The notes under the pieces: model-generated
The model's input: the letters and a program-made list of their open reading frames with translations, nothing else
The model's database searches: none
What the model was told of the DNA's origin: nothing
Part shown: piece by piece, positions 1,488 through 35,864 of the stretch
Position numbering within the stretch: position 1 is the stretch's first letter
Layout of the letters: every line of letters begins with the position of its first letter
Origin: an uncultured Chloroflexia bacterium
GTDB taxonomy: Bacteria > Chloroflexota > Limnocylindria > Limnocylindrales > CSP1-4
Length of the DNA: 64,000 nt
Assembly: GCA_963752475.1 (NCBI GenBank)
Contig: CAVVYR010000007.1
Span: forward strand, 1-64,000
Direction: 5' to 3'
Made by a program: the position numbers and the translations under genes

Positions 1488-1584
1488 CGAGGGGTCTCCT
1501 GGATTTACCCGCGAGTGCGACAGCTACGCTGCCGCCAGAACGAGGGTCGGATGTCAGACTGGGTTGTCGCATGGACCTTCGCTA

Positions 1585-1599
1585 CACCCGGTTCGGGTG
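1585..1599. promoter_or_regulatory. Palindromic operator site 1 (CACCCGGTTCGGGTG), between divergent genes
   Basis: TATGCT at 1622-1627 (+, 22-nt gap) and CAGTCT at 1556-1561 (-, 23-nt gap); motif recurs 10 times. Confidence 0.75.
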
Positions 1600-1676
1600 G
1601 AACCGCACCTCGCGCGCCCGGTATGCTCCAAGTCCCGAGAGGAACGAAGCATCCGCAGGCGATCGTAGGGAGGACC

Positions 1677-4364
1677 GTGGACGTCACCGAACCCACATTC
1701 GTCCCGACCAAGACGCAAGCACCACGCGTGCCCGCGAGCGCCATCGAGCGTCTCGGTGTGCACGACCGGCTCGACGCGGTGCTCGACCACCCGCTCACGC
1801 TGGTCACCGCGCCGGCCGGCTTCGGCAAGTCCTGGGCTCTCGCGGGCTGGCTGCAGGGAGCGGCGGCGCCACCCTCCTGCTGGGTCTCGCTCGACCCCTA
1901 CGACGATGACGCCATGCGCCTCTGGACCCACGTCATCGGCGCGGTCCGCGGCTCCGGCCAGCCTGCCGCCGCGACCGAGGCGACCGAGCTCATCAGCGGC
2001 TCGCCCGCGGGCTGGCCCCGCATCGTCGACGCGCTCGCGGCCGGACTGGCGGAGCAGGCCCAGCCGCTGGTCATCGTGCTCGACGACATCCATGCCGTCA
2101 GCAACCCCGAGGCCCTCGCCTCGCTGGGCCAGTTCCTCGCGCAGCTGCCGGCCACGAGCCACCTCGTGCTCGTGGGCCGCCACGACCCGGACATCCCGCT
2201 GGCGCGCTGGCGGGTCACCGGCGAGCTGCTCGAGATCCGCACCGGCGAACTGCGCTGCAGCCTGGCCGAGTCCGAGGCCCTCGTGTACGAGGCCCTGGGG
2301 CTGCAGCTCGCTGACAAGGACGTGGCCACCATCCACGAGCGCACCATGGGCTGGCTGGCCGGCATCCGCCTCGCAGCCACCGCGCTCTCGCGCCGTCCCC
2401 GCAGCGCGGCCGGGGCCGCGGCCCTCACCGGCGTGGGCACCATCGAGGGCGCCTACGAGGCCCTCGGTGACTACCTCATCGAGGAGGTCCTCGACACGCT
2501 CGAGGAGGACACGCGTCGGTTCCTGCTCGACATCTCGGTCCTGACCCGCCTCGACGTGGGCCTCTGCGACCACGTGGCCCAGACCACCGCCAGCGCGACC
2601 ATCCTCAGTGGCTTCGAGCGCTCGGGCTCGTTCATCACCCGCACCGCCGACGGCACCTACCGCCTCCATGACCTCGTCCGTGATGCCCTGCGCACCATCC
2701 TCCACCGCCAGGCCCCCGCCCGCGAGACCGAGCTGCTCCTGCGCGCCGCGCACTGGTTGCACGATCATGGCCAGCCCGTCGACGCGGTCAGCTACGCGCT
2801 CGAGGCCGAGCGCCCCGAGCTTGCCGAGCGCTGGCTCATCGAGTCCACCCGCGCCCTGCTCGAGGCCAAGCAGATCGAGACGCTCTGCGCGCTCTTCGAT
2901 CGCCTCGATGCGACGGGCTTCGAGATGTCGCCATCGGCGCTGCTGATGTGGATCTCCACCATCCTCTACAGCAGCCGGCCAGCGGCCCAGATCGACCGAG
3001 TGCTGGAGCGGGCCATGAAGTCGTACCTGGAACTGACCCCGGAGCAGGAACAGCAGTTGGCCCTCGACCTACTGGATGCGCCACATCTGTATCACGAGTC
3101 GGTCACCGAGTTGCGCTTGGTGACCATGTCGGCGATCGCCCACCGCGCCGGTGATCTCGAGTCGGCCCTGCAGTCCATGGCCTCTCTTGAGTCCGCACCC
3201 AGCGACAATGGCTTCATCGAGGCGGCGGCCGGTGAGGCGCGCATCTTCCAGGAGCAGTACGCCGAAGGGATCGGCCTGCTGCGGAGGTGGATCGATTGGG
3301 CCTCCCACGTGCAAGGATTGATGGCCGTGAACCTCGCATACGGTCTGTCGTTCTTCGCCTACGGCCTGCTTGGGCAGGGCAAGCTCACCGAGGCCGAGCG
3401 CGTGGCCGAGCAGGCCATCGAAGCGCTGGGGGCCATCGGGCTGACCGAGCTGCCGGCGTATGCCATCGGTGCCCTGCCGGCTGGCTGGGTAGCCTGGGAG
3501 CGCGGTGACCTCACAGCCGCGGAGACGATCGTCGACGCGGTGGCGCCGGCGATCGGAGCCTACGGCGAGGTCCCCACCACGGTACTGGCGCGCATGCTCC
3601 AGGCCCGCGTGCGCTTCTCGAAGGGCGACCCCGAGGCCGCTTTCGCGGCGCTCGAGGAAGCCCGGGTCATGAGCACCGGCCGTCCGGTACGGGGCCACTT
3701 CGCGGAGCGCCTCACCTTCGAGCAGCTGCGCCTGCACCTGCTCCTGGGCGATCCCGCCGCGGCCAGGCTCGACCTGCCCGACTGGCGCGAGCGTATCGAG
3801 CGGGGCCCCACCGGCATGCGCGAGCAGCTGCTCCTCGCGCGGCTGCTCATCGAGTCCGGCGCGGACGCCACGACCCTGCTCGACGAACTGCCCGAGGGCG
3901 CCGAGGTCACCGTCGTCCATGACATGGAGCTCGCGAAGTTGCGGGCCCTCGTGGCCCTGCGCGACGGCGACGAGACCGCCGCGCTCGAGCACCTCACCGC
4001 GGCCATGCGTATCGCGGTCCACAGCGGCCACCGCCAGATGTTCCTCGACTCCGAGCGGGCCTTGGGGGCCGTGCTCGACAACGCCGCCGCACGGAGCGGC
4101 TTCCTGCTGCGCTTCGACCGCGACGCTCCCCCGGTGGCCCCGCTCGAGGGTGCGCAGGCGATCCTCATCGAGCCGCTCTCGGACCGGGAGCTGGAGCTGC
4201 TGCGCCTGCTGCCCAGCCATCTCTCGTACCGCGAGATCGGTGCGCACATGTTCCTCTCCACCAACACCGTCAAGTCCTACGTCCAGTCCATCTACCGCAA
4301 GCTCGACGCCGAGCGTCGCTCCGAGGCGGTCGAGCACGCCCGTTCCCTGGGCCTGGTGCCCTAG
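1677..4364 (+). CDS. MalT-like STAND ATPase / LuxR-HTH transcriptional activator, paralog 1
   Basis: PTKTQAPR start motif, Walker A APAGFGKS, Walker B VIVLDDIH, ERTMGWLAGIRL, C-terminal LuxR HTH EPLSDRELELL...STNTVKSYVQSIYRKL; GTG after GGGAGG RBS. Confidence 0.93.
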   Translation: MDVTEPTFVPTKTQAPRVPASAIERLGVHDRLDAVLDHPLTLVTAPAGFGKSWALAGWLQGAAAPPSCWVSLDPYDDDAMRLWTHVIGAVRGSGQPAAATEATELISGSPAGWPRIVDALAAGLAEQAQPLVIVLDDIHAVSNPEALASLGQFLAQLPATSHLVLVGRHDPDIPLARWRVTGELLEIRTGELRCSLAESEALVYEALGLQLADKDVATIHERTMGWLAGIRLAATALSRRPRSAAGAAALTGVGTIEGAYEALGDYLIEEVLDTLEEDTRRFLLDISVLTRLDVGLCDHVAQTTASATILSGFERSGSFITRTADGTYRLHDLVRDALRTILHRQAPARETELLLRAAHWLHDHGQPVDAVSYALEAERPELAERWLIESTRALLEAKQIETLCALFDRLDATGFEMSPSALLMWISTILYSSRPAAQIDRVLERAMKSYLELTPEQEQQLALDLLDAPHLYHESVTELRLVTMSAIAHRAGDLESALQSMASLESAPSDNGFIEAAAGEARIFQEQYAEGIGLLRRWIDWASHVQGLMAVNLAYGLSFFAYGLLGQGKLTEAERVAEQAIEALGAIGLTELPAYAIGALPAGWVAWERGDLTAAETIVDAVAPAIGAYGEVPTTVLARMLQARVRFSKGDPEAAFAALEEARVMSTGRPVRGHFAERLTFEQLRLHLLLGDPAAARLDLPDWRERIERGPTGMREQLLLARLLIESGADATTLLDELPEGAEVTVVHDMELAKLRALVALRDGDETAALEHLTAAMRIAVHSGHRQMFLDSERALGAVLDNAAARSGFLLRFDRDAPPVAPLEGAQAILIEPLSDRELELLRLLPSHLSYREIGAHMFLSTNTVKSYVQSIYRKLDAERRSEAVEHARSLGLVP

Positions 4365-4564
4365 GGGGATCGCCCCGGGGTACGTGGCACATCGCGTGGG
4401 GCGGATGCGGAGCGTGGCGGCCTGCTGACCACGCGCGCCGACCCTCATCGACGGCCCCTGCGCGATCGAGGCTTCCTGCGGCAACCGGGCCTGCTGCTGG
4501 GCCGTGCGCTCTACTCTTGATCAGGGCGTCACTGGCCACCCGGTGGAGATGTGAGTCCCGGCCA

Positions 4565-4586
4565 CCTGAGCCTGGACAGGCTCAGG
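4565..4586. terminator. Hairpin CCTGAGCCTG-ga-CAGGCTCAGG at the mscS stop, between convergent genes
   Basis: Perfect inverted repeat, no U-tract. Confidence 0.4.
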
Positions 4587-5469
4587 GTCCTGGCGAGCGC
4601 ACCGCTGACGGCTCCGGCGCGCTGCCGTCGGTGGGGCCCTGGCCCGAAGTCGATGCGGAAGTCTGGACGAAGAGCTGAGGTGGAGGAAGGCTGATCCCGG
4701 CATCGGAGATGGCGCGCTGCAGGGCCCTGATGGCCTTGTCCATCACCGCCGTGTCGTTGTGGGTGTCCGGCCCGAACCAGAAGCGGATAGAGAGGTTGAT
4801 GGCGCCATCACCGAAGCTCCTCGCGAGCACGAGCGGAGCCGGGTCCGCCACGACCGTGTCAACACCAGCGACAGCGTCGATGAGCGTCCGGCTCACGGCA
4901 TCGAGATCGGCGTTGGGGTCGACTCCAAGGTCGATGCAGACCCTTCGCTTCTTGAAGGCCGTGTAGACGATGATGGTCGTGCCCAGGACCTGCGTGTTGG
5001 GGATGTGCACGCGCGTCCCCTCTGGGGTCTTGAGGGCGGTCGTGCGCGCGCTGATCTGGACCACTTCTCCACGATAGCCAGCGACTTCCAGTTGATCGCC
5101 AACTCCGAATGAGGGACGCGCCTGCAGCAGGAGGCCGGCCGCTGAGTTCTCGATAAGCGGCCGGATCATCAGGATGACGACCACGACGATGACGAGCACC
5201 ACCGCCACGAGCCAGCCCGCGTCGAGACCCATGACGCTCAGGGCCAGGGACCACGAGACCAGCAACACGGCGTATTGCGCGATCCGACCCACGTCGTTCG
5301 TGATCTCGGCGGAGACACCCGGTACCTTGGCCACGCCACGCCGAGCCCACCGCCCTGCCCATCGGGAGACGGGTAGCGCGACGAGTACGACCGCCAGCGC
5401 CAGGATCACGTCCCAGCCTGTCAACCCCAGAGACTGGATCAGGGTCGTGGCTTCGTCGACGATCTGCAC
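4582..5469 (-). CDS. mscS: Small-conductance mechanosensitive channel family protein
   Basis: Three TM segments, ENSAAGLLLQARPSFGVGDQL, GEVVQISARTT, VHIPN. Confidence 0.85.
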   Translation of the reverse strand: MQIVDEATTLIQSLGLTGWDVILALAVVLVALPVSRWAGRWARRGVAKVPGVSAEITNDVGRIAQYAVLLVSWSLALSVMGLDAGWLVAVVLVIVVVVILMIRPLIENSAAGLLLQARPSFGVGDQLEVAGYRGEVVQISARTTALKTPEGTRVHIPNTQVLGTTIIVYTAFKKRRVCIDLGVDPNADLDAVSRTLIDAVAGVDTVVADPAPLVLARSFGDGAINLSIRFWFGPDTHNDTAVMDKAIRALQRAISDAGISLPPPQLFVQTSASTSGQGPTDGSAPEPSAVRSPGP

Positions 5470-5680
5470 TCTGCCTCGTTCTCCTTCGGGTCGAGCTCCT
5501 TCGCTGTGCGCCAGCGCGGACGATCGGCTAGCTCATCCCGCGGCACGCAATGCCGCCAGGCACTGCATGGACCCTCGGTCAGGCACGGACTCCCTGAGCG
5601 GCGAGATCAGGTTCGTTAGGGACGGGGCCGCAAGCCGATCCCGTCGACCCGTTCCATGTCGCGAGGGGCGTCAGAGAGAC

Positions 5681-6001
5681 CTACTCCCCGTCCGTCTTGT
5701 AGATCGACTGGCCATATTCGGCGGCCGTGCGCCGGTTCGAGATGGCCTGGCCCCAGTTCAGGAGGTCAAGGATCACGCCGAGGGCGATCCACAGCCATTC
5801 CCAGCCGTCGATGCCGAGCGGCGTCCAAGCCAGGATGTACATGATCGTGGTGTACGGGAGGAAGAGGATGCCGAGGAGTGGCAGCAGGAATTCGCCCTGC
5901 CAGACGGTCACCCAGCGATCGCTGAATATCCAGGCGAGCACGAGGATCACCCGAGGAGCCACTGCTATGCCGAGCGCTAGGAAACAGCCGAGCAAAATCA
6001 C
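5681..6001 (-). CDS. Small hypothetical membrane protein
   Basis: Hydrophobic 106 aa with PLLGILFLPYTT and GWEWLWIALG; AGAGGG upstream; lies downstream of operator site 2. Confidence 0.75.
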   Translation of the reverse strand: MILLGCFLALGIAVAPRVILVLAWIFSDRWVTVWQGEFLLPLLGILFLPYTTIMYILAWTPLGIDGWEWLWIALGVILDLLNWGQAISNRRTAAEYGQSIYKTDGE

Positions 6002-6090
6002 AAATCTACCCTCTCTGCATTCGCCATCCGCACCGACCCTTGTCGGATCTGGTTGACAAGAGGGTCGCGCTCATCGACCCTCTGCGGCTA

Positions 6091-6105
6091 CCCCCGAATC
6101 GGGTG
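6091..6105. promoter_or_regulatory. Operator site 2 (CCCCCGAATCGGGTG)
   Basis: One mismatch to consensus; GACCCT on - strand at 6061-6066 (24-nt gap). Confidence 0.65.
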
Positions 6106-6163
6106 TTTCGGCCGGTCGCTACATCTCGGCTGAGCCGAGCTCGATGGCGAACGCCACTCGCTA

Positions 6164-6178
6164 CACCCGGTTCGGGTG
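6164..6178. promoter_or_regulatory. Operator site 3 (CACCCGGTTCGGGTG), autoregulatory position
   Basis: Identical to site 1; TATGCT at 6201-6206. Confidence 0.75.
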
Positions 6179-6256
6179 GAACCGCACCTCGCGCGCCCGG
6201 TATGCTCCAAGTCCCGAGAGGAACGAAGCATCCGCAGGCGATCAGTAGGGAGGACC

Positions 6257-8923
6257 GTGACCTTCGTCCCGACCAAGACACAGCCACCGCGCGTGCCCGC
6301 GAGCGCCATCGAGCGCCTCGGTCTGCACGACCGGCTCGGCGCGGTCCTCGACCATCCGCTCACGCTGGTCACCGCACCCGCCGGCTTCGGCAAGTCCTGG
6401 GCCGTCGCCGGCTGGCTGCAGGGCGATGCGGCCCCGGCCTCGTGCTGGGTCTCGCTCGACCCCTACGACGATGACGCCATGCGCCTCTGGGCCCACCTCA
6501 TCGGCGCGGTCCGCGGCTCCGCCCAGCCCGCCGCCGCGACCGAGGCGACCGAGCTCATCAGCGGCTCGCCCGCGGGCTGGCCCCGCATCGTCGACGCCCT
6601 TGCGGCCGGACTGGCGGAGCAGGCCCAGCCGCTGGTCATCGTGCTCGACGACATCCAGGCCGTGACCAACCCCGAGGCCCTCGCCTCGCTGGGCCAGTTC
6701 CTCGCGCAGCTGCCGGCCACCTGCCACCTCGTACTGGCGGGCCGCCACGACCCGGACATCCCGCTCGCGCGCTGGCGGGTCACCGGCGAACTGCTCGAGA
6801 TCCGCACCGGCGACCTGCGCTGCAGTCTGGCCGAGTCCCAGGCCCTCGTGCACGAGGCCCTGGGGCTGCAGCTCGCTGACAAGGACGTGGCCACCATCCA
6901 CGAGCGCACCATGGGCTGGCTGGCCGGCATCCGCCTCGCGGCCACCGCGCTCTCGCGCCGTCCCCGCAGCGCGGCCGGGGCCAGCGCCCTCACCGGCGTG
7001 GGCGCCATCGAGGGCGCCTACGACGCGCTCGGCGACTACCTCATCGAGGAGGTCCTCGACACGCTCGAGGAGGACACGCGTCGGTTCGTGCTCGACATCT
7101 CGGTGCTGACCCGCCTCGAGGTGGCCCTCTGCGACCACGTGGCGCAGACCACCGCCAGCGCGGCCCTCCTCTCGGACTTCGAACGCTCGGGCTCGTTCAT
7201 CACCCGTACCGCCGACGGCACCTACCGCCAGCATGACCTCGTGCGTGATGCCCTGCGCACCATCCTCCACCGCCAGGCCCCCGCCCGCGAGACCGAGCTG
7301 CGCCTGCGCGCGGCCCACTGGTTCCACGATCACGGCCAGCCCATCGACGCGGTCAGCTCCGCGCTCGAGGCCGAGCGCCCCGAGCTCGCCGAGCGCTGGC
7401 TCATCGAGTCCACCCGCGCCCTGGTCGAGGCCAAGCAGATCGAGACGCTCTGCGCCTTCTTCGACCGTCTCGATGCCACGGGCCACGAGTTCTCGCCGTC
7501 GGGGCTATTCATGTGGAGTGCCTCCAACCTCTATGGCAACCGCCCCGCGATCGAGATCGACCGCGTTCTCGACCGCGCGCGCCGGGCGTTTGCGTCGCTC
7601 AGCGACGAGGATCGCGATCAAGGCGAGAGTGATCTTGTCTATCTCGCTGGATCGTACGCATCGCTGGATGAGATCCGTCTCTTCCTGGAGGCGATAGTCG
7701 GCCACCGAGAGGGCAATCCCGAACGGGCCGGACGAGCCGCGGAGGCCCTGGGACAGCCAAGCTTGAGCGGCTTGACCGAAGCCCTGGCTGGTGTCTCACT
7801 GATCTTTCGAGAACAGTATTCAGCAGGCATGGACCTGGGGCGACGATGGCAAGCGTACGTGGAGCGGTCCATAGGGGTAGCGGCGTCGAACCTCGGCCAC
7901 AGCCGCTCCTGGCTCGCCTACGGGCTCCTCGGCCAAGGCAAGCTCACCGAGGCCGAGCGGGTCGCTGGCCGGGCTAGCGAGACTCTCCGGGCTATGGGGC
8001 TGACGGAAGTGCCGGCCTATGCATTGGTGACCCTGCCTGCAGGCTGGGTGGCCTGGGAGCGCGGGGACCTCACGGCCGCGGAGACGATCGTCGACGCGGT
8101 GGCGCCGGCGATCGGAGCCTACGGCGAGGTCCCCACCACGGTACTGGCGCGCATGCTCCAGGCCCGCGTGCGCTTCTCGAAGGGCGACCCCGAGGCCGCC
8201 TTCGCGGCGCTCGAGGAAGCCCGGGTGATGAGCACCGGCCGTCCGGTACGGGGCCACTTCGCGGAGCGCCTCATCTTCGAGCAGCTGCGCCTGCACCTGC
8301 TCCTGGGCGATCCCGCCGCGGCCAGGCTCGACCTGCCCGACTGGCGCGAGCGTATCGAGCGGGGCCCCACCGGCATGCGCGAGCAGCTGCTCCTCGCGCG
8401 GCTGCTCATCGAGTCCGGCGAGGACGCCACGACCCTGCTCGACGAACTGCCCGAGGGCGCCGAGGTCACCGTCGTCCATGACATGGAGCTCGCGAAGTTG
8501 CGGGCCCTCGTGGCCCTGCGCGACGGCGACGAGACCGCCGCGCTCGAGCACCTCACCGCGGCCATGCGTATCGCGGTCCACAGCGGCCACCGCCAGATGT
8601 TCCTCGACTCCGAGCGGGCCTTGGGGGCCGTGCTCGACAACGCCGCCGCACGGAGCGGCTTCCTGCTGCGCTTCGACCGCGACGCTCCCCCGGTGGCCCC
8701 GCTCGAGGGTGCGCAGGCGATCCTCATCGAGCCGCTCTCGGACCGGGAGCTGGAGCTGCTGCGCCTGCTGCCCAGCCATCTCTCGTACCGCGAGATCGGT
8801 GCGCACATGTTCCTCTCCACCAACACCGTCAAGTCCTACGTCCAGTCCATCTACCGCAAGCTCGACGCCGAGCGTCGCTCCGAGGCGGTCGAGCACGCCC
8901 GTTCCCTGGGCCTGGTGCCCTAG
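6257..8923 (+). CDS. MalT-like STAND ATPase / LuxR-HTH transcriptional activator, paralog 2
   Basis: Same motifs as paralog 1 with an identical HTH; GTG after GGGAGG. Confidence 0.93.
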   Translation: MTFVPTKTQPPRVPASAIERLGLHDRLGAVLDHPLTLVTAPAGFGKSWAVAGWLQGDAAPASCWVSLDPYDDDAMRLWAHLIGAVRGSAQPAAATEATELISGSPAGWPRIVDALAAGLAEQAQPLVIVLDDIQAVTNPEALASLGQFLAQLPATCHLVLAGRHDPDIPLARWRVTGELLEIRTGDLRCSLAESQALVHEALGLQLADKDVATIHERTMGWLAGIRLAATALSRRPRSAAGASALTGVGAIEGAYDALGDYLIEEVLDTLEEDTRRFVLDISVLTRLEVALCDHVAQTTASAALLSDFERSGSFITRTADGTYRQHDLVRDALRTILHRQAPARETELRLRAAHWFHDHGQPIDAVSSALEAERPELAERWLIESTRALVEAKQIETLCAFFDRLDATGHEFSPSGLFMWSASNLYGNRPAIEIDRVLDRARRAFASLSDEDRDQGESDLVYLAGSYASLDEIRLFLEAIVGHREGNPERAGRAAEALGQPSLSGLTEALAGVSLIFREQYSAGMDLGRRWQAYVERSIGVAASNLGHSRSWLAYGLLGQGKLTEAERVAGRASETLRAMGLTEVPAYALVTLPAGWVAWERGDLTAAETIVDAVAPAIGAYGEVPTTVLARMLQARVRFSKGDPEAAFAALEEARVMSTGRPVRGHFAERLIFEQLRLHLLLGDPAAARLDLPDWRERIERGPTGMREQLLLARLLIESGEDATTLLDELPEGAEVTVVHDMELAKLRALVALRDGDETAALEHLTAAMRIAVHSGHRQMFLDSERALGAVLDNAAARSGFLLRFDRDAPPVAPLEGAQAILIEPLSDRELELLRLLPSHLSYREIGAHMFLSTNTVKSYVQSIYRKLDAERRSEAVEHARSLGLVP

Positions 8924-9018
8924 GGGGATCGCCCCGGGGTCCGTGGCACATCGCGTGGGGCGGATGCGGAGCGTGGCGGCCTGCTGACCACGCGCTTGGT
9001 GGGTTCCTCTTGGCGTTT

Positions 9019-9035
9019 CACCCACATCGGGGGTG
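9019..9035. promoter_or_regulatory. Operator site 4 (degenerate, CACCCACATCGGGGGTG)
   Basis: Upstream of the lipoprotein gene; GACTGT at 9060-9065. Confidence 0.5.
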
Positions 9036-9131
9036 GCTCGTCCCTCGCGCTCGGTGGTTGACTGTGAGTGGAGCCGCTCTCACGTCTTCCGCGCGAGATG
9101 CGCAGCCCCACCCCAAAGAGGTGGACCAGCA

Positions 9132-9704
9132 ATGTCAACTCGAAGCTCCGTGCGTCGGCCGGCCCTGTTGCTGGCGCTGGCGGTGAGTGCTGTCCTGCTG
9201 ATCGCGGCCTGTGATGACGGCGCTGATGCAACGCCGGCCGCAGAGACGGCATCAGAGGCGTGGGCCAGCAGCGTGTGTGGTGCTGTGGCTACCTGGGAGG
9301 ACTCGATCAGGACCATCACGACCGACTTCAGCGATGGCATCTCCAAGGATGTCGTCACCGAGAAGGTCGATGACGCGGGGAAAGCCACGCAAGACCTCGT
9401 CGCTTCCCTGCGGGATGTCGGTGCACCCGAGACCGACGCTGGCCAGGACGCGAAGACGGCGATCGAGCAGTTCGCCGACGAACTCGAGTCAGGCGTCGAC
9501 TCGATCAAAGCTGATGTGCAGGACCTCGCGGACTCCGGTGCTGGAGGCGTCGCCTCAGGCGTGACCGATATCGCTACGCAGCTGAGCACGCTCATCGCGG
9601 ACGGTCAGGCCACACTCGGAGATATCCAGGGCCTGGACGCCGCGGAGGAGCTCAAGGCGGCCATCGAGAACGACGAGACCTGTCAGTCCCTTAGAGCCGA
9701 ATAG
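9132..9704 (+). CDS. Predicted lipoprotein, alpha-helical
   Basis: Signal peptide ending in LIAAC lipobox; WASSVCGA...C cysteine pair; GAGGT RBS. Confidence 0.8.
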   Translation: MSTRSSVRRPALLLALAVSAVLLIAACDDGADATPAAETASEAWASSVCGAVATWEDSIRTITTDFSDGISKDVVTEKVDDAGKATQDLVASLRDVGAPETDAGQDAKTAIEQFADELESGVDSIKADVQDLADSGAGGVASGVTDIATQLSTLIADGQATLGDIQGLDAAEELKAAIENDETCQSLRAE

Positions 9705-9803
9705 GGGGCGCCTGTCGGCCCAAGGTCGACGCCATCAAGGACGCAAGGTCGTGCCACGTCGGATGGCACGACCTTGTCGGATCATGCGCGGGGGCGAGAG
9801 AGA

Positions 9804-9877
9804 TCAGGGTCCTGGCGAGCGCACCGCTGGCGGCTCCGGCGCGCTGCCGTCGCTGGAGCCCTGGCCCGAACTCGATG
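9804..9877 (-). pseudogene. 74-nt copy of the mscS 3' end (4582..4655)
   Basis: 70/74 nt identical by manual alignment, including the stop codon. Confidence 0.85.
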
Positions 9878-9917: not shown

Positions 9918-10373
9918 TCAGTCGGCCTCGTCCTGGTCATCGGCATCATCGCGGCGTCGACCAGCCAGCGGGCGCTGCGAAGCGATGCGAGAGATGAGTG
10001 CTGCCATGACGCCCAGCCCGGCGATGCCGTAGATGACGGTCACGATCTTGCTCAGGTCAGTCGTTGGGGCGATGTCGCCGTAGCCGATGGTAGCGAGGGT
10101 GATGAAGCTGAAGTAGAAGCCGTCGACCAGCGACAGGTCCTCGAGGACCATGAAGATGAGCGTGCCGGCCACGAGCAGCATCCCGGCTGCCACCAGGATG
10201 CTTCGGCTGGTTGCATCGCGCCAGATGCTGCGAAGCGCCACGTACGTGATCACGAAGGGCATGGCCATGGTGCCCGGAATCGCGACCAGCGCCTTGCCCG
10301 CTGTCTTCGCCGCGTGCCTGTCGTGTGGTTTGGGTGGCTGATCGCCGGCTGAGTTATCTGGCTCGCTGGTCAT
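9918..10373 (-). CDS. Two-TM potassium channel family protein (pore-only, Ion_trans_2)
   Basis: DGFYFSFITLATIGYGDIAP selectivity filter signature. Confidence 0.92.
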   Translation of the reverse strand: MTSEPDNSAGDQPPKPHDRHAAKTAGKALVAIPGTMAMPFVITYVALRSIWRDATSRSILVAAGMLLVAGTLIFMVLEDLSLVDGFYFSFITLATIGYGDIAPTTDLSKIVTVIYGIAGLGVMAALISRIASQRPLAGRRRDDADDQDEAD

Positions 10374-10555: not shown

Positions 10556-10570
10556 CACCCGGAGTGGGTG
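10556..10570. promoter_or_regulatory. Operator site 5 (CACCCGGAGTGGGTG)
   Basis: Divergent intergenic region; CAACGT on - strand at 10528-10533 (22-nt gap). Confidence 0.65.
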
Positions 10571-10619: not shown

Positions 10620-10634
10620 AACCCGATTCGGGTG
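10620..10634. promoter_or_regulatory. Operator site 6 (AACCCGATTCGGGTG)
   Basis: Heads the long + strand operon; CATCCT at 10659-10664 (24-nt gap). Confidence 0.65.
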
Positions 10635-10722: not shown

Positions 10723-11722
10723 ATGGCCGACAAGATCGTCACCGGACCCGTCCAGGTCTTCGTCATCGGTTTCGAGAAGCCCGACTTCAACGGGCGCATC
10801 CTCGCCGAGCTCAAGAAGGCCCGCAAGCGCGGCGTCATCCGCCTCGTGGACCTGCTCTTCGTGCAGAAGGACGCCGGCGGTTCCATCAGCTCGACGATGC
10901 ACATGACAGGCCTTAGTGAAGCCGAGCGCCTGCGCCTCGGTGCCGTGGCCGGCGGCCTCATCGGCCTCGAGGTCGGCGGCCTCGAAGGCATGGAGGAAGG
11001 CGCTGCCCGCGGTGAGCTCCGCGTGACCGCCCGTGACTACGGCATGAGTAGCGCCCAGCTGGCCGACCTCGCCGACAGCATCCCGGCCAACAGTGCCGCC
11101 GCGGTCATGGTCATCGAGCACCACTGGGCGGCGAGCCTGCGTGACGCGCTCGCCGACGCCGGTGGCGAGCTCCTGCTGCAGGCCATGATCGGACCGGACC
11201 TGCTGCTGACCATCGGGGCCGGGCTGGAGGCCCGTCTCGAGGCCGAGGAGGCCATCGAGGAGGCCGAGGCCATCAAGTACGCGGCCGCGGTCGAGGTCGC
11301 CCAGACCCTCGCTGAGGCCGAGATCATCGAGGAGCTGGCCATGGAAGAGGCGGCTGACGTGGTCGCCACCGCGATGGCCATCGAGGATGCCGTCGCGGCC
11401 GACGTGGCCGAGGCGCTCATCGAGGCCGAGTTCATCGAGGACGTCGCCGCCGACGAGGCCGCGGCAGCGGTCGAGGAAGCCCTGGCCATCGAGGACGAGG
11501 CTGCCGCTGAGGCGGCCGATGCGGTCGAGACCGCGGCCGAGATCAAGGCCGCCGCCGCGGTCGAGGCCCTGCGCGCGCTCTACGTCGCCAAGGTCATCGA
11601 AGACGAGGCCGCCCAGGAGGCCGTCGACGCCCTCGTGGCTGCCGAGATCATCGAGGACGAGGCTGCCGCCGAGGCCCTCGACGCCGTCATCGCTGCCGAG
11701 GAGGTCGAAGCAGGAAGCCTGA
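10723..11722 (+). CDS. DUF6325/DUF1269-like protein with long acidic Ala/Glu repeat tail; probable frameshift just before the stop
   Basis: GPVQVFVIGF, GVIRLVDLLFVQKD, IEHHWA motifs; GAGGAG RBS; TGA at 11720-11722 is out of frame and the literal ORF reads on to 11871, overlapping the next gene. Confidence 0.75.
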
Positions 11723-11786
11723 GTCGACGAGGGCGATGGATGCGCCACAGCCAAGCCAACACACGTAGCGAACAGGAGTACACACC

Positions 11787-13346
11787 ATGGCCAAGAAACG
11801 GGGAACGGCATTCGACGTCCCGTCGAACGTCTTCGTGCCCGATGAGCTGGACTCACGGCTGGGCAAGCTGACCTTCACTGACGGGGCACCCAGCGACGAG
11901 ACCGTCGAGAAGATCTACGACAACCTCGACTTCACCCGCGCACTCGACGCCTACATGAACGGCTACCAGCTGGCCTCCCTGAAGGCCATGCACAACGGCC
12001 TGCTGGCCCACGGCGCCGAGGACAACGGCGGCGTGATGATCTGGTCGAAGCTGATGGATTCCCAGTCCCTCTTCCTGACCGCCAATGCCGACACGATCTA
12101 CTACATCTTCACCATCAACCTCAACGAGGGACCGATGGTCGTCGAGACCCCGCCGGATGCGCTGGGCCTCTTCGATGACTTCTGGTTCCAGCACGTCATC
12201 GACTTCGGCCGGCCGGGTCCGGATCGCGCGAAGGGTGGCAAGTTTCTCCTGGTGCCTCCGGGCTATGACGGCCCGATGCCGGACAGCGGCTTCCACGTGG
12301 GCGCCTGTACGTCGATGTTCGTGATGGCCTTCGGCCGCAACTTCCTGCAGGACAACGACCCCAAGCCGGTCGTCAAGTCGATCAAGGACACCCTCAAGAT
12401 CTATCCCTACACGCCGGGTGGTTACGGCACCAGCATCGCCACGCTGCTCGAGGGCAAGACGACTCCGGGCAAGCCGGCGGCAGTCAAGCCGACCCACTTC
12501 GTGGAGGGCACCGGCCTGGACATGAACACGCTGCCCCCCAGCGACCACACCTACTTCGACATGCTCAACGAGATCGTGCAGGAGGAGCCGAGCGGCGTGA
12601 TCTCCAAGGAGATCATGGGCTCGTTCGCGGCCATCGGCATCGTCAAGGGCCAGAAGTTCAAGCCGAATAAGCGCATGCAGAAGATCCTCGCCGACGCTGC
12701 GGCGGTCGCTTGCGCCACCGGGCGTTCGCTGAACTGGCGCTTCCGAGATGAAGACGGCTGGGCGTTCTATCCGGGATCTGCCTGGTACAACATGCTCTGG
12801 CAGGGCGGCTACAACTACGAGACGCCGCCGCCGGAAGTGACCAAGGACGGCATCAAGCCCTACCCGCCGACCGGCTACCGCATGCTCAACGCCCGCTTCG
12901 GCTTCTTCTCCATCGCCACCGGGGTCACCCCGGCCATGTGCATGCGCTTGACGGGCATCGGCTCGCAGTACCTGATCGCCGACGTCGACGCCGACAAGAA
13001 CTACTTCGACGGCGCCAAGACCTACAAGTGCACCTTGCCCGCGAACATCCCGGAGGTCAACTTCTGGTCGTTCACGGTCTACGACAACCAGACCCGCTCC
13101 ATGCTGCGGACACCCCAGGGTTACCCGAGGGCCGGCAGCCAGTCGTACCCCAGCCCGGCGGCCGTCCACAACAAGAACGGCACCGTGGACATCTACTTCG
13201 GCCCGGTGGCGCCCAAGGGCAAGGAAGCCAACTGGATCCAGACCGTACCCGGCAAGGGTTGGTTCACGATCCTGCGCATCTACAGCCCCACGGAGGCCTA
13301 CTTCGACAAGACCTGGCAGGCCGGCGAGATCGAGCTGATCGACTGA
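11787..13346 (+). CDS. DUF1254/DUF1214 domain protein
   Basis: LFLTANADTIY, GPDRAKGGKFLLVPPGY, FWSFTVYDNQTRS, NWIQTVPGKGWF; CAGGAG RBS; no evident signal peptide. Confidence 0.92.
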   Translation: MAKKRGTAFDVPSNVFVPDELDSRLGKLTFTDGAPSDETVEKIYDNLDFTRALDAYMNGYQLASLKAMHNGLLAHGAEDNGGVMIWSKLMDSQSLFLTANADTIYYIFTINLNEGPMVVETPPDALGLFDDFWFQHVIDFGRPGPDRAKGGKFLLVPPGYDGPMPDSGFHVGACTSMFVMAFGRNFLQDNDPKPVVKSIKDTLKIYPYTPGGYGTSIATLLEGKTTPGKPAAVKPTHFVEGTGLDMNTLPPSDHTYFDMLNEIVQEEPSGVISKEIMGSFAAIGIVKGQKFKPNKRMQKILADAAAVACATGRSLNWRFRDEDGWAFYPGSAWYNMLWQGGYNYETPPPEVTKDGIKPYPPTGYRMLNARFGFFSIATGVTPAMCMRLTGIGSQYLIADVDADKNYFDGAKTYKCTLPANIPEVNFWSFTVYDNQTRSMLRTPQGYPRAGSQSYPSPAAVHNKNGTVDIYFGPVAPKGKEANWIQTVPGKGWFTILRIYSPTEAYFDKTWQAGEIELID

Positions 13347-14696: not shown

Positions 14697-14771
14697 CCTT
14701 GATACCAAGCACCAGGCAGCCGAGTACCCAATGGACCGGTGCGACCAGGACCCGGATCCCGGAGGATCACG

Positions 14772-16559
14772 ATGAGTCAGGCAACCGATAGCGCGTCGAG
14801 TCCAGCCCAGGGCGCGTCCCGTCCCGTCCCCACGGCGCCGACGACCCTCGAGCGGTGGTTCCCCATCGCGGTCTGGCTGCGCCAGTACGACTGGGGCAAG
14901 TCGTTCACGCCTGACCTCATCGCCGCCGTCAGCGTGGCGGCCCTGCTCATCCCCGAATCCATGGGCTACGCCTCGGTCGCCGGCGTCCCCGCACAGTACG
15001 GCCTCTACGCAGCCCCGCTGGCACTGCTCGCCTACGCCATGTTCGGTGGCTCCAGGCTGCTGGTCTTCGCAGCGGCTGGCTCCGTCGCGGCCATCAGCGC
15101 ATCCATCGTCGGCGGGATCTCTGACGGCGATTCGAGCATCGCCATCACGCTCACGGCCGGACTCGCCATCGGCACCGGCGTGGTCTATCTCGTATTCGGC
15201 CTTGCCAAGATGGGCTGGGTCGCGAACTTCATCTCCAAGGCCGTCATGGCCGGCTTCATCTTCGGCATGTCCATCCAGATCATCGTGGGCCAGTTCGGCA
15301 AGCTGTTCGGGGTCGAAATCAGCGATGGCAGCGCGGCCGAGAAGCTCTGGGCAGCTGTCACCAGCATCGGCGACTGGAACATCAGCGCCAGCGTGGTCGG
15401 CATCGGAGCGCTCCTCCTCATCTTTGGGCTGCAGCGCTTCATGCCCAAGGTGCCCGCGGCGCTCAGCGCGGTCATCATCGCGTCGGCCCTCGTGGCCGTG
15501 CTCAGCCCCTCCATCGACATCGTTGCCGAGATCCCCCAGGGCCTGCCCTCCTTCGGGGTGCCCACCGGGATCGATCTCGAAACCTGGCTCACGCTGATCG
15601 TCGGCGGCATCATCGTCCTCCTCGTCGGCTTCTCGGAGGGGTGGGGGGCCGAGTCGAGCCTCGCCGAGAAGACGCACGACGACCTTGACACCAACCAGGA
15701 GTTCCGGGCCTACGGCCTTGGCAACATCGGTGCCGGCCTGCTCGGCGGCATGGGCGTCACGGGCAGCCTCTCGAAGTCCTCGGCAGCGGTGGCAGCCGGA
15801 GCCAAGTCGCAGTTCTCCAATATCCTGCTCGCAGGTTTCGTGATCCTGACGCTGCTCTTCCTGGCGCCGCTCTTCCAGTGGCTGCCGGAGACCGTCCTGG
15901 CGGCCATCGTCATCAACGCTATGTCAGGCTCGGCCAGCCCGCGCAAGCTCGAGCGGCTATGGAAGGTCGATCGCATCGACTTCGCGTTTGCCCTGGTGAC
16001 CTTCCTGATCGTCTTCTTCGCCGACCTGCTACCGGCCATGATCGCGGGCATCGTGATGTCGGTCGTCTACATGATCTATCGCATCAGCTTCCCCGGCCGG
16101 TCCACCCTTGGCCGGGTGCCTGAGACCGGCGACTACGAGGCCATGAAGTGGGAGTACGGCCGTCGCAGCGGCACGACCCACTCGGACGCTGAGGCGGTAC
16201 CGGGCGTCATCGTCTATCGCTTCGCGTCGCCGCTGATCTTCGCCAATGCCGAAGCCTTCAAGCAGACCGGGCAGAACCTGCTCATCAGCGCGGCCAAGGA
16301 TGGACCGCTGCCACACACGATGGTCATCGACTTCGAGGAGGTCATCCTCGCCGACTCGACCGGCACAGCCCAACTCAGCGCTTTCTTCAAGTACGCGCAA
16401 CGCTATGGCGTGGACCTGCTGCTGGCGCGCGTGCACTCAGGCACACACAAGCTCCTCGAGCTCGCCGGCACGGCCGACGAACTCGGCGAGGAGCGCTTCT
16501 ATCACACCGTCCGCGACGCAGTCGATGCAGCCGTCGCCAAGCACGGTCAGCCCAAGTAG
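14772..16559 (+). CDS. SulP (SLC26) anion transporter with STAS domain
   Basis: DLIAAVSVAALLIPESMGYA, GLYAA, NQEFRAYG, YRFASPLIFANA; GGAGG RBS. Confidence 0.93.
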   Translation: MSQATDSASSPAQGASRPVPTAPTTLERWFPIAVWLRQYDWGKSFTPDLIAAVSVAALLIPESMGYASVAGVPAQYGLYAAPLALLAYAMFGGSRLLVFAAAGSVAAISASIVGGISDGDSSIAITLTAGLAIGTGVVYLVFGLAKMGWVANFISKAVMAGFIFGMSIQIIVGQFGKLFGVEISDGSAAEKLWAAVTSIGDWNISASVVGIGALLLIFGLQRFMPKVPAALSAVIIASALVAVLSPSIDIVAEIPQGLPSFGVPTGIDLETWLTLIVGGIIVLLVGFSEGWGAESSLAEKTHDDLDTNQEFRAYGLGNIGAGLLGGMGVTGSLSKSSAAVAAGAKSQFSNILLAGFVILTLLFLAPLFQWLPETVLAAIVINAMSGSASPRKLERLWKVDRIDFAFALVTFLIVFFADLLPAMIAGIVMSVVYMIYRISFPGRSTLGRVPETGDYEAMKWEYGRRSGTTHSDAEAVPGVIVYRFASPLIFANAEAFKQTGQNLLISAAKDGPLPHTMVIDFEEVILADSTGTAQLSAFFKYAQRYGVDLLLARVHSGTHKLLELAGTADELGEERFYHTVRDAVDAAVAKHGQPK

Positions 16560-20605: not shown

Positions 20606-20624
20606 TACACCCGATGCGGGTGTA
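20606..20624. promoter_or_regulatory. Operator site 7 (TACACCCG-ATG-CGGGTGTA, perfect extended palindrome)
   Basis: CATGCT at 20646-20651 (23-nt gap), upstream of the FUSC gene. Confidence 0.75.
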
Positions 20625-20695
20625 CCGGCGATATATCCACACCGTCATGCTGGGGCTTGGATCCAGATAGGCGATCAGCAGTGAGGAGGGTCAGG

Positions 20696-21775
20696 ATGCT
20701 CGCGCAACTCCGCACACTGCTGACCTTTGACCTTGACGCGATCGACCTGCGCAAGGGCGTGATGGGCGTCGTGGCCATCGGTATCGTCGTCATCTTCGTG
20801 GCCATCTTCGGCACGGTAGGTATGACGGCTGGGCTGGCCGCGCTCTTCGTGATCATGGCCGACCAGCCGGGATCGCTGCGCGACCGAAGCTTGGCCATCG
20901 TGCTCATGACGGTCCTCGGTGCGCTGATCGCGCTGGTGGCGGTCTGGGCCGGGACGAGCCACGTCTGGGTGGCCACGTTGCTGACGTTCGTCGTCACCGG
21001 CGTCGCTACGCTGGTTTCGGGCTTCGGCCCTGGCGCGGCCGTCCGTGGCCTGCTCCTTTCGATCTGGGCCATCGTGGCCTTGACCTTCGGTGGCGACACA
21101 GAGTCGGCCGTCCAACTCGCCGTTGCTTTCGCCCTGGGTGGCGTGATCGCCGCGGGCATCATCTGGCTGCGCGACCGAGCCCTGCCGGAGCCATCAGCCG
21201 AGGTCGAGGTAAAGGCTGCGACTCGCACGCTCGGCGACCTCGCCCGCTCACCGCTGGGTTGGTTCTCGCTCCTGCGGGCGAGCGCCGCCGCACTGGCCAT
21301 GGCCCTGGGTGCTGTGCTCTTCCCCGAGCACGCCATATGGGCCGCGCTGACCGTCATGCTGGTCATGAAGCCCAAGGCAGGGGAGGCCGTCGCGGCCGGG
21401 GTGCTGCGAACCCTTGGGACACTCGCCGGCGTAGTAGCGGCTGAGGTTGTGCTGGACATCAGCAATGGACAGGACGCAGTCATCATCATCGGTTTCTTGA
21501 TCTCCGCCTTCGGCATGGCCGCCTTCAAGAAGGTCAACTACGCGATCTTCGTGCTCTTCCTCACGGCTCTGCTGGTCCTTTCGCAGGCGCTCATCGGCGA
21601 GTCTGCTGACACTGCGGCCACCGACCGGCTGTTGGCCACGATCATCGGCGCGGTCATCGCGTTCATCGGCATCGGCGTCGGGCGCTGGGCCCTTGCCCGA
21701 AGTACCGAGGACGGCGGCGGGGCGCCCGATCCAACCACTGACGAACTGGGAGACATGGACACGACACCGGGCTAG
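20696..21775 (+). CDS. FUSC-family (aromatic acid exporter-like) membrane protein
   Basis: EHAIWAALTVMLVMKP, RTLGTLAG, DRLLATIIG. Confidence 0.85.
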   Translation: MLAQLRTLLTFDLDAIDLRKGVMGVVAIGIVVIFVAIFGTVGMTAGLAALFVIMADQPGSLRDRSLAIVLMTVLGALIALVAVWAGTSHVWVATLLTFVVTGVATLVSGFGPGAAVRGLLLSIWAIVALTFGGDTESAVQLAVAFALGGVIAAGIIWLRDRALPEPSAEVEVKAATRTLGDLARSPLGWFSLLRASAAALAMALGAVLFPEHAIWAALTVMLVMKPKAGEAVAAGVLRTLGTLAGVVAAEVVLDISNGQDAVIIIGFLISAFGMAAFKKVNYAIFVLFLTALLVLSQALIGESADTAATDRLLATIIGAVIAFIGIGVGRWALARSTEDGGGAPDPTTDELGDMDTTPG

Positions 21776-24064: not shown

Positions 24065-24067
24065 CGC
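22099..24067 (+). repeat. ~1.97-kb direct repeat, copy 1 (copy 2 at 30169..32137)
   Basis: Constant offset of 8070; only about five differences seen, all near the ends. Confidence 0.95.
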
Positions 24068-29416: not shown

Positions 29417-29431
29417 CACCCGCATCGGGTG
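29417..29431. promoter_or_regulatory. Operator site 8 (CACCCGCATCGGGTG)
   Basis: TACCCT on - strand at 29388-29393 (23-nt gap), upstream of the sulP pair. Confidence 0.75.
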
Positions 29432-32134: not shown

Positions 32135-32200
32135 CGCGGGGGCTGCCGCTGCGATCGCGAAATAGGTCGTTCGGCAGGACGTGCGCTCAGCGCCGGCAAG

Positions 32201-33694: not shown

Positions 33695-33756
33695 GGCTGC
33701 TCCTCTCGCGGTCGGTCAACGTCTGCCGGCCGGCATCGTCCCTCGTGACACCGGGC

Positions 33757-33855
33757 CTAGATGGCCTCGTCGTCAGAGCGGACGCGATACGCGACCAGGC
33801 CCGCGACTGCCAGCACTACTGCGACGATCACGAACTTGCGGATGATGCTCGACAT
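33757..33855 (-). CDS. 32-aa single-TM small protein (MSSIIRKFVIVAVVLAVAGLVAYRVRSDDEAI)
   Basis: AAGAGGGGAAG RBS; first ORF downstream of operator site 9; below the ORF track length cutoff. Confidence 0.7.
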   Translation of the reverse strand: MSSIIRKFVIVAVVLAVAGLVAYRVRSDDEAI

Positions 33856-33917
33856 GGCCTGCTTCCCCTCTTGCGGTGTGGTCCGCCAACGATGAGGGCG
33901 TATCTCGCTCTTGGCTA

Positions 33918-33932
33918 CCCCCGAAGCGGGTG
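33918..33932. promoter_or_regulatory. Operator site 9 (CCCCCGAAGCGGGTG)
   Basis: CATCGT on - strand at 33889-33894 (23-nt gap). Confidence 0.7.
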
Positions 33933-33963
33933 GTACCTCGTCCCGTTCGACCCTGGGGGTCGC

Positions 33964-34210
33964 TCAGTCGGCCAGGTCGAGTCGGTAGCTGAGGTCGCCA
34001 CCCGGACTGGTACCAGGCTCGCGCACGAACCCGTAGCGCTCGAGCAACCGCGTCGATGCCGTGTTCTCCATCGCGACGCCACCGACGATCGAACCGACAT
34101 CCCCTCGAGCCCGGCACCAGGCCACACCGCCGCCGAGCAGTTCACGCCCAGCCCGCGACCCCAGGCGTCCTCTGCGAGCAGGTAGCCGAGCCGCAGTTCG
34201 GTGCCCTCTG
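33964..34210 (-). pseudogene. GNAT acetyltransferase 3' fragment, frameshifted
   Basis: ELRLGYLLAEDAWGRGLG / ELLGGGVAWCRAR...ENTASTRLLE parallels the intact GNAT at 59349..59867. Confidence 0.8.
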
Positions 34211-35849: not shown

Positions 35850-35864
35850 CACCCGAAGCGGGTG
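35850..35864. promoter_or_regulatory. Operator site 10 (CACCCGAAGCGGGTG)
   Basis: GACGCT on - strand at 35821-35826 (23-nt gap); last copy in the window. Confidence 0.7.

Follow-up and report, generated by a model that had tools for sequence, protein, structure and literature searches.

The first 64 kb of contig CAVVYR010000007.1 from an uncultured Chloroflexia bacterium (NCBI GenBank assembly GCA_963752475.1), referred to as the window in the following, carry two genes for large MalT-like regulators, which are designated A and B. The contig has a length of 672,569 nt and is part of a draft genome of 4.25 Mb in 38 contigs, which is 88.8% complete and shows 5.8% contamination. Regulator A (positions 1677-4364, plus strand) consists of 895 amino acids and regulator B (6257-8923, plus strand) of 888 amino acids; both have the architecture of a MalT-like STAND ATPase with a LuxR-type helix-turn-helix (HTH) domain, and both genes start with GTG located 7 nt after the ribosome-binding site (RBS) GGGAGGA. 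The start codons are preceded by a shared promoter and leader region, extending in copy A from 1579 to 1676 (plus strand; containing a palindrome, a -10-like TATGCT box, and the RBS) and in copy B from 6158 to 6256 (plus strand; palindrome at 6164-6178). Between A and B, a gene for an MscS-type mechanosensitive channel (4582-5469, minus strand; Pfam MS_channel_2nd and MS_channel_3rd) and a gene for a small hydrophobic protein of 106 amino acids without Pfam family (5681-6001, minus strand) are found. The subject of this account is the mosaic relationship of the two regulators, which are nearly identical except for one piece of the sensor.

A and B are intact MalT-type STAND/LuxR regulators of the LAL family, that is, large ATP-binding regulators of the LuxR family. 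The Pfam families TPR_MalT (70.4 bits in A and 63.1 bits in B; cut-off 45) and GerE (46.0 and 45.2 bits, respectively; cut-off 23.5) are recognized in both proteins, while AAA_16 on its own stays below its cut-off (24.8 versus 32.6 bits). With GxxxxGK[ST] and hhhhDD taken as the Walker A and Walker B criteria, the motifs APAGFGKS (residues 45-52 of A) and LVIVLDD (residues 131-137 of A) are present and are the same in B; an alignment of 122 homologs shows a conservation of 90% or more in their columns. AlphaFold2 (AF2) models were obtained with a predicted local distance difference test (pLDDT) score of 92.2 for A and 93.0 for B and a predicted TM-score (pTM) of 0.85 each. The regulators' nucleotide-binding oligomerization domain (NOD) together with the arm matches MalT (8bob_C) in phmmer (E 2.1e-30) and in Foldseek (E 1.7e-17, TM-score 0.87 on the target). 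Via structural alignment to 8bob_C, MalT residues 1-417 correspond to model residues 7-444 (Z 38, root-mean-square deviation (rmsd) 3.0, 405 residues aligned), and domain III of MalT (1hz4) corresponds to model residues 457-814 (Z 27, rmsd 4.1, 339 residues aligned), at an overall identity to MalT of only 24-26%. At the C-terminal GerE/LuxR-type HTH, the last 66 residues are the same in A and B, and the regulators belong to a clade with the distinctive recognition-helix region STNTVKSY..IYRKL. Both copies look functional, since both reading frames are open, both AF2 models are confident, and each type of the diverged piece is 97-100% conserved between assemblies. The association with maltodextrin genes that would be expected of MalT orthologs, i.e., activators of a maltose regulon, was not observed for A and B: no gene for maltodextrin uptake or metabolism occurs among the open reading frames (ORFs) scanned in 1-43 kb. 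Other LAL paralogs of the same genome are at most 34% identical to them, and in 24 genomes of the same genus and 16 genomes of the same order no ortholog above 31% identity was detected. A scan of JGI metagenome contigs yielded a single close locus, L017, which spans the upstream side of A and its first 224 codons, and a scan of genome collections yielded L011, a partial relative with 81% DNA identity, plus more distant homologs.

When the two genes are compared by blastn, 1579-2998 aligns with 6158-7563 (91.8% identity over 1422 columns) and 3355-4436 with 7914-8995 (96.6% over 1083 columns), and nothing alignable is found between those two blocks. Protein identity of A to B amounts to 92% for residues 1-405, 47% for residues 415-600, and 99% for residues 601-895. 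Breakpoints were placed at 2919 and 3483 (A coordinates) by a two-rate maximum-likelihood scan with a likelihood-ratio statistic of 483; inside the breakpoints 42.3% of the sites differ versus 4.1% outside. The variable segment, or middle, covers 2919-3483 in A (plus strand; residues ~415-602) and 7484-8042 in B (plus strand). In A, it is preceded by the N part (1677-2918, plus strand), comprising the NOD and most of the arm with ~93% nucleotide identity to B, and followed by the constant C part (3484-4436, plus strand), comprising the remaining sensor, the HTH, and 72 nt past the stop codon. The shared 72 nt past the stop codon of B (8924-8995, plus strand) are 98.6% identical to 4365-4436. 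Over the 960 bases from 3477 to 4436 of A, the two copies disagree at 10 positions, and 519 nt (3863-4381) is the longest stretch without any difference. Upstream of the genes, 86 nt (1579-1664 versus 6158-6243) are identical, and up to the start codon identity is 99% over 102 columns.

A previous sequence-only reading of this DNA had described a shared promoter, a similar ATPase/arm region, and a near-identical C-terminus with the HTH, enclosing a diverged segment at 2919-3471 with sharp boundaries. The parts themselves are confirmed, and the likelihood breakpoints place the segment almost where it had been drawn. The boundaries, on the other hand, are graded: in windows of 30 codons, identity declines at the left edge through 0.97, 0.88, 0.74, 0.66, and 0.50 and rises at the right edge through 0.58, 0.71, 0.72, 0.81, 0.94, and 1.00, so that the edges of the mosaic are shoulders of ~45-60 codons. 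The weaker GC bias that had been noticed in the segment of the second copy is reproduced by the GC content at third codon positions (GC3), which is 0.739 in the middle of B, 0.855 in the middle of A, and 0.93-0.95 in the flanks. For the genes of the window longer than 200 amino acids, mean GC3 is 0.84 with a standard deviation (sd) of 0.06, which puts the flanks ~1.6 sd above the mean; in the single-copy homologs L012 and L013, GC3 is uniform at 0.79-0.82.

In the structure, residues 415-600 make up the last two arm helices and the first ~40% of the sensor, namely its first 145 residues with five helical hairpins; by structural alignment, the position in the sensor region that had been proposed for the variable piece is thus upheld. 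The same ten helices are predicted for the variable part in both AF2 models (helices 419-608 in A). Among 116 homologs, this stretch is the least conserved one, with 1.79 bits compared to 2.64 bits for the NOD, 2.14 bits for the rest of the sensor, and 2.78 bits for the HTH. For MalT, a high-affinity inducer site has been described that is assembled at the arm-sensor junction and is bipartite (arm and sensor), because affinity for maltotriose is ~1000-fold lower in the sensor on its own than in fragment 336-806, which comprises arm and sensor (PMC4381067). Activity was lowered in the MalT groove mutants S383R/N386R and W524R/I532R, and in the same study the inducer site could not be seen by cryo-electron microscopy (cryo-EM) (PMC10427625). 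According to the alignment offsets, W524R/I532R would fall within the variable piece and S383R/N386R just before it. Judged from the models, the variable piece is the structural counterpart of the inducer-binding region of MalT.

Both types of middle recur in other assemblies. One of these contains P0001 (A-type, 98% identical to A) and P0134 (B-type) on a single contig of 54,829 nt; a third assembly contains a 136,334-nt contig with one A-type fragment and two B-type fragments; a further B-type protein, P0003, is encoded on a contig of 8,186 nt. The C parts are ~98% alike in the two assemblies in which both types are present. The variable segment of B is 98.9-100% identical to those of P0134 and P0003, and the A-type middle is 97.3% conserved between strains. 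In four out of four metagenome runs, originating from four studies, contigs over 3000-7910 cover both middles at depths near that of the unique spacer; these data are assembled contigs and not raw reads, which means that depth is no copy number and that rare variants are lost. The stretch itself is represented in eight studies. Single contigs bridge the joins between N part and middle of A (X2, X3), between middle and C part of A (X1), between the spacer and the B promoter (X1, X2), and between N part and middle of B (X6). Across the window, the three other assemblies, and the four metagenome runs, two types of the sensor segment are found and no series of alleles, such as the sequence-only reading had proposed to look for. 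Their stability between strains would fit two fixed specificities rather than a hypervariable locus, and the idea of a sensor diversification like that of NLR receptors is weak in view of two versions only, each 97-100% conserved between strains.

Some contigs of the metagenome runs show other arrangements at the ends of the repeated unit. Contigs of three runs connect a LAL gene end (up to 4367) via 9 extra letters to 6167, which lies within the palindrome upstream of B; in two runs, the unique spacer runs into 4308 or 4317; in two runs, a third upstream flank precedes 6150, and a search of the own genome for this flank, using a pattern of 26 bases and allowing up to 2 mismatches, gave no match. 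The odd joint between the LAL gene end and 6167, whose shorter side measures only ~30 nt, may be the scar of a head-to-tail junction or reflect the arrangement of another strain.

Sliding-window identity and dN/dS, which the sequence-only reading had named as a check, separate the parts of the mosaic also by age. Nei-Gojobori estimates for A versus B are dS 0.138 and dN 0.042 in the N part, dS 1.405 and dN 0.473 in the middle, and dS 0.030 and dN 0.003 in the C part; the proportion of differing synonymous sites (pS) is 0.64 in the middle, which is near saturation, and 0.03-0.13 in the flanks. On these alignments, the parts of the A/B mosaic coalesce at different times, since a 10- to 47-fold difference at synonymous sites cannot arise from selection on the protein. 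The flanks themselves show three ages, with an identical promoter, a C part at dS 0.03, and an N part at dS 0.14. Over the 86 middle codons shared with L011, dS is 0.905 and dN 0.249 for A-L011, compared to dS 1.418 and dN 0.335 for A-B; in the C part, dS is 0.030 for A-B versus 0.355 for A-L011. Maximum-likelihood trees differ between the parts as well. For the N part, A, P0001, B, P0003, and L017 form a clade (support 99/99) nested within P0002 and P0004. The tree of the middle has B and P0003 branching outside the group formed by A/P0001, P0002, and P0004/L011 (88/88), with the middle of B on a branch of length 0.78, although it still groups with the others in a 7-member clade (99/98). For the C part, the four sequences of the window species stand together (100/99), with A and B of the window nearest each other. 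The approximately unbiased (AU) test rejects the middle topology when applied to the C part (p = 0.037).

Recurrent gene conversion of the flanks, by which the specificity block was spared, would account for the mosaic with a probability of roughly 0.6. It is favored over import of the middle on account of the 10- to 47-fold dS contrast, the genome-wise grouping of the C part, the raised GC3 of the flanks, and the lack of a donor. As regards the grouping, the comparison with P0001 and P0134, which reside on one contig, shows 5 columns of the C part grouping by genome and 0 by ortholog; in the N part, 1 column groups by genome and 5 by ortholog, and in 15 columns only B of the window is odd. 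Because of the 5 versus 0 columns, the C part would have been homogenized separately in the two strains. The C part would accordingly represent a recently converted flank and the N part an older one. A and B have the same spacer separating palindrome and -10-like box in their promoters; since this spacer differs in L017, constraint alone does not explain its identity in the two copies. GC-biased gene conversion would predict a raised GC content at the silent sites of converted tracts, and the raised GC3 of the flanks fits such a process. Of the two routes that the sequence-only reading had left side by side, conversion of the flanks has thereby gained support, and cassette recombination has lost some, as no donor was found.

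Several observations weigh against flank conversion. The genome-wise grouping is a small count of 5 columns. The alternating A-like and B-like patches that the B-type proteins of the other assemblies show in the N part, as conversion tracts differing between strains would, could be mimicked by chimeric metagenome assembly. Between A and L011, too, the middle (dS 0.905) evolves faster than the C part (dS 0.355), and part of the contrast between middle and flanks is for this reason due to rate or composition and not to age. For the middle, a sister relationship of A and B is not rejected by the AU test (p = 0.114), so that the protein tree by itself would allow the middle of B to branch off at different depths relative to speciation. 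In addition, the middle of B deviates in GC3 (0.739, against 0.855 in that of A and 0.84 in the window) and sits on its long branch, and P0002, P0004, and L011 all possess A-clade middles, no B-type having been seen in the nearest other species; an old duplication would for that reason require losses, or a partner missed on short contigs.

These last three points equally speak for a recent duplication after which the middle of B was replaced from a distant, unsampled homolog, in which case the flanks would be young and not converted. The arrangement in L011, where the A-type gene adjoins the K+ channel gene and thus takes the position held by B in the window, can be read in the same sense. A donor was sought by an exhaustive phmmer search of 1.84 billion representatives (E up to 0.001), which returned 14 matches for the middle of B, the best one beyond its own cluster being 42% identical; this negative is limited by the library, in which proteins more than 50% identical are merged, so that a relative above this identity overall, for instance the B-type ortholog of a sister species, could have gone unnoticed within the cluster. 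Among 5.8 billion clustered proteins, a word-based search returned only P0003 and P0001. Furthermore, a single recent duplication does not explain the three ages of the flanks, leaves the genome-wise grouping of the C part and the graded shoulders unaccounted for, and is at odds with a B middle that still falls within the same 7-member clade. Import from such a homolog is thus considered rather unlikely.

In L011 (1-2317), a regulator with an A-type middle is followed directly by the DUF1269 and K+ channel genes, the two that in the window are found next to B. Such an order could represent the single-copy state of the ancestor or the collapse of a pair by recombination between the shared C parts. 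The L011 contig was assigned to a Chloroflexota bin, yet its closest matches are actinobacterial, and it may be misbinned.

Divergence of the middle in place, with fast change of the sensor under positive or relaxed selection and no recombination, would be in line with the region being the fastest-evolving part of the family and with the AU test, which allows the two middles to be sisters; it is a very improbable explanation, because synonymous sites are near saturation in the middle (pS 0.64 versus 0.03-0.13 in the flanks) and because the middle is as conserved as the flanks between strains (97-100%), and as a candidate that dispenses with recombination it was ruled out by the synonymous divergence. 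No targeted mutagenesis system was seen among the ORFs scanned in 1-43 kb. An artefact of assembly or polishing, by which two diverged copies or strain variants were merged to identical flanks, is given hardly any credence, for although the draft is fragmented and contaminated to the extent stated above and the short-read contigs of other samples break inside the repeated parts, two other assemblies have both types on one contig, contigs of all four runs cover both middles and bridge the joins, and the contig of the window is itself 672,569 nt long; the consensus collapse that had been named as a possible refutation is accordingly improbable.

The repeated unit starts at 1579 and 6158, and the palindrome CACCCGGTTCGGGTG begins 6 nt further, at 1585 and 6164, which agrees with the earlier remark that the duplicated unit starts right at the operator, the palindrome being a candidate operator. 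Of the exact form CACCCG-N3-CGGGTG, the 4.25-Mb genome contains five copies, none of them outside the window, and the reversed control is absent. If one mismatch is allowed, 9 sites are present in the window, all in 1-36 kb, versus 0.67 expected (sd 0.78, maximum 3, 100 shuffles), and 44 genome-wide. The symmetry is extended by the flanks to TACACCCG-N3-CGGGTGTA. Eight of the nine sites are located between called genes and upstream of one. The exact palindrome at 1585-1599 is centered 85 nt before the start codon of A, and its counterpart at 6164-6178 lies upstream of B; a variant with one mismatch, CCCCCGAATCGGGTG, occupies 6091-6105 between the small gene that precedes MscS and B. Two palindromes with one mismatch each (10556-10570 and 10620-10634) are situated between a K+ channel gene (9918-10373, minus strand), on the downstream side of B, and a DUF1269-like gene (10723-11871), which form a divergent pair; both recur in L011, at 2795 and 2853. 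Exact palindromes are also found at 20608-20622, centered 42 nt before a FUSC_2 gene (20657-21775) that precedes AI-2E and DUF389 genes, at 29417-29431, centered 69 nt upstream of a SulP/STAS gene (27544-29355, minus strand) belonging to a SulP gene pair, and at 35850-35864, ~177 nt upstream of a small ORF (35324-35680, minus strand). The site at 33918-33932, with one mismatch, is the one inside a weak ORF call (33745-34185); it lies ~230 nt upstream of a DUF2252 gene (32201-33694, minus strand).

In L017, the palindrome, the TATGCT box 22 nt downstream of it, and the RBS are all kept, while the spacer varies. If TATGCT served as a -10 box, the palindrome would be centered near -41, a position typical of activators; a scan of 1400-1700 for consensus sigma-70 promoters and terminators found nothing. 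Across genomes, the palindrome follows the regulator clade. The 24 genomes of the same genus, which lack a close homolog, contain 37 sites versus 29 for the control, i.e., background level, whereas two genomes with a 49% identical homolog contain 10 sites versus 1 control each and have the palindrome beside genes of the DUF1269, DUF2252, and DUF1254/1214 families; a third genome has 4 versus 2. A fourth one, with a 44% homolog, has 0 exact palindromes versus 0, which is a point against this association. Around the L012 homolog, DUF2252, DUF1254/1214, and DUF1269 genes have sites on their upstream side, the distance being 92 nt in the case of a DUF2252 gene; the gene families next to the sites are the same in L012 and L011. 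The homologous island in a genome with a 49% homolog also harbors an IS21-like element with a Mu-type transposase and IstB (L012:5217-6967).

By its distribution, the palindrome is specific to this island and conserved in relatives, and it probably marks a shared regulon of A and B. That it belongs to another regulator, or is a structural repeat unconnected with A and B, is an unlikely though not negligible possibility: a 6-bp stem with a 3-nt loop could form an RNA or DNA hairpin, and the L012 site nearest to the start of the homolog itself is 941 nt upstream. Against this stand the same position upstream of both regulators, the retention of the palindrome in L017 while the spacer varies, and a clustering that goes with the regulator clade from genome to genome. 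A and B are the sole DNA-binding proteins detected in the island, the ORFs scanned in 1-43 kb having yielded no further family of this kind, and no Rfam family matches 1-40000. A conserved regulon of this kind appears not to have been described before.

The surroundings of the regulators bear traces of further rearrangement. A remnant of 74 nt of the MscS 3' end (9804-9877, minus strand) is 94.6% identical to 4582-4655; since the 3' end of the MscS gene is thus repeated, the duplicated unit was formerly longer. The gap between the shared region downstream of B and this remnant (8996-9803) measures 808 nt and includes an ORF without family and with a signal-peptide-like start (9033-9704); its counterpart behind A measures 145 nt. 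On sequence comparison, either one copy has received an insertion or the other has lost sequence by deletion. Within the DUF1269-like gene, at least 6 units of a 54-nt tandem repeat (11251-11711) encode 18-residue repeats rich in Ala and Glu, which lie in the C-terminal half of the protein. The island as a whole is rich in ion transport genes, comprising 3 SulP, MscS, K+ channel, SBF, DedA/VTT, FUSC_2, and 2 AI-2E genes; the three SulP/STAS anion transporter genes (14739-16559, 25828-27534, and 27544-29355) lie within 15 kb. A second near-identical pair of 1969 nt (22099-24067 versus 30169-32137, 99.7%) corresponds to AI-2E family transporter genes (21893-24064 and 30182-32134), the second copy being without ~70 N-terminal codons. 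This pair shares its part of the island with the palindromes at 20608 and 29417.

From these data, the following scenario is proposed. The tandem duplicates A and B would evolve in concert, with gene conversion repeatedly overwriting the promoter, the ATPase/oligomerization core, and the C-terminal half of the sensor with the HTH, while ~560 nt coding for the arm-sensor junction would have escaped conversion and kept their old divergence. The outcome would be two proteins with the same promoter, assembly core, and DNA-reading head, and with different ligand-contact surfaces. In the resting state, each protein would be a closed, ADP-bound monomer. Binding of a ligand that bridges arm and sensor would open the NOD, followed by ATP exchange and multimerization, so that, by analogy with MalT, assembly of A and B would depend on inducer and ATP. 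Once the HTH domains had bound the palindrome, transcription would be activated, also at the two regulator genes, which would amount to autoregulation. These activation steps are modeled on MalT as portrayed in three reports (PMC4381067, PMC6468293, PMC10427625), and their transfer to A and B is by inference. Since A and B share promoter, core, and HTH but are distinct in their ligand-contact block, a single regulon, made up of channel and transporter genes in the first 36 kb of the window, would respond to two signals. The two regulators thus probably sense different signals and operate through shared DNA sites; we infer two ligands, binding of the palindrome by both proteins, and the logic of an OR gate, and mixed oligomers could give a logic other than OR. 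A more far-reaching version, which is put forward tentatively and is doubtful as a whole, would see in conversion more than a by-product: it would keep the core and the HTH interchangeable and in this way allow A and B to form mixed multimers on one palindromic operator, with selection preventing it from crossing the arm-sensor junction. In this version, the pair would integrate two inputs for an island of ion and osmotic homeostasis, and would be a natural domain swap that confines the ligand specificity of STAND proteins of the tetratricopeptide repeat (TPR) type to ~185 residues.

Among known systems, MalT of Escherichia coli is the closest in architecture, having the same succession of nucleotide-binding domain, helical domain, and winged-helix domain (NBD-HD-WHD), arm, TPR/SUPR-like sensor, and C-terminal LuxR/GerE HTH, and the variable piece of A and B is predicted to cover the junction at which MalT assembles its inducer site. 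A and B differ from MalT in their low identity, in having channels and transporters as neighbors instead of maltodextrin genes, in a candidate site that is a 15-19 bp palindrome, MalT boxes being asymmetric repeats, and in the presence of two copies with a mosaic relationship. Tandem LAL regulators of the NysR and PikD type, i.e., large ATP-binding LuxR-family regulators encoded side by side, are known from gene clusters of actinomycetes, which are high-GC Gram-positives; these paralogs are generally divergent from end to end and located in antibiotic clusters, whereas A and B are near-identical but for one sensor piece and belong to an ion-transport island. A full-text search of the literature for gene conversion between LAL/LuxR paralogs or between sensor domains of bacterial regulators found no relevant report. 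Concerted evolution by gene conversion is well known from tufA/tufB and the rRNA operons. As in these, the copies within one genome are closer to each other than to their orthologs (the 5 versus 0 columns of the C part), and tract ages differ; unlike in these, conversion in A and B would stop on both sides of an internal block that holds the presumed determinant of specificity.

NLR and STAND immune receptors (Avs as well as plant and fungal NLRs) belong to the same superfamily, and Avs3, Apaf-1, and NRC are among the structural matches. Common to them and to A and B are a conserved NOD and a divergent sensor, and gene conversion has reportedly been discussed for fungal NLRs; in the present case, there are two stable sensor versions, and the output is transcription and not cell death, so that an NLR-like reading is not supported beyond the common descent of the fold. 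Among peptide receptors, those of the RRNPP group (Rap, NprR, AimR) align with model residues 415-785 (Z ~20-21.6, rmsd 4.3-5.1) at an identity of 7-11%, which is a general likeness of TPR superhelices, and they are without NOD. The fold shared with RRNPP receptors shows no function, and no peptide gene was identified at the A/B locus.

Summarizing, LAL regulators and concerted evolution are each known, and what is new is their combination at this locus together with the lead to a palindromic regulon. The putative regulon places the palindrome beside SulP, MscS, K+ channel, DUF1269, DUF2252, and DUF1254/1214 genes and ties it to one LAL clade of actinobacteria from sediment. Conversion and divergence would coexist within one bacterial gene, by which a second input may be added while the output side of the regulon is left untouched. 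The choice of ligands by STAND proteins with repeat sensors is poorly mapped; in the A/B pair, a natural chimera is available that varies in nothing but the terminal piece of the arm and the five initial hairpins of the sensor, and a comparison of ligand binding by A, B, and swapped forms would test whether this block carries the specificity.

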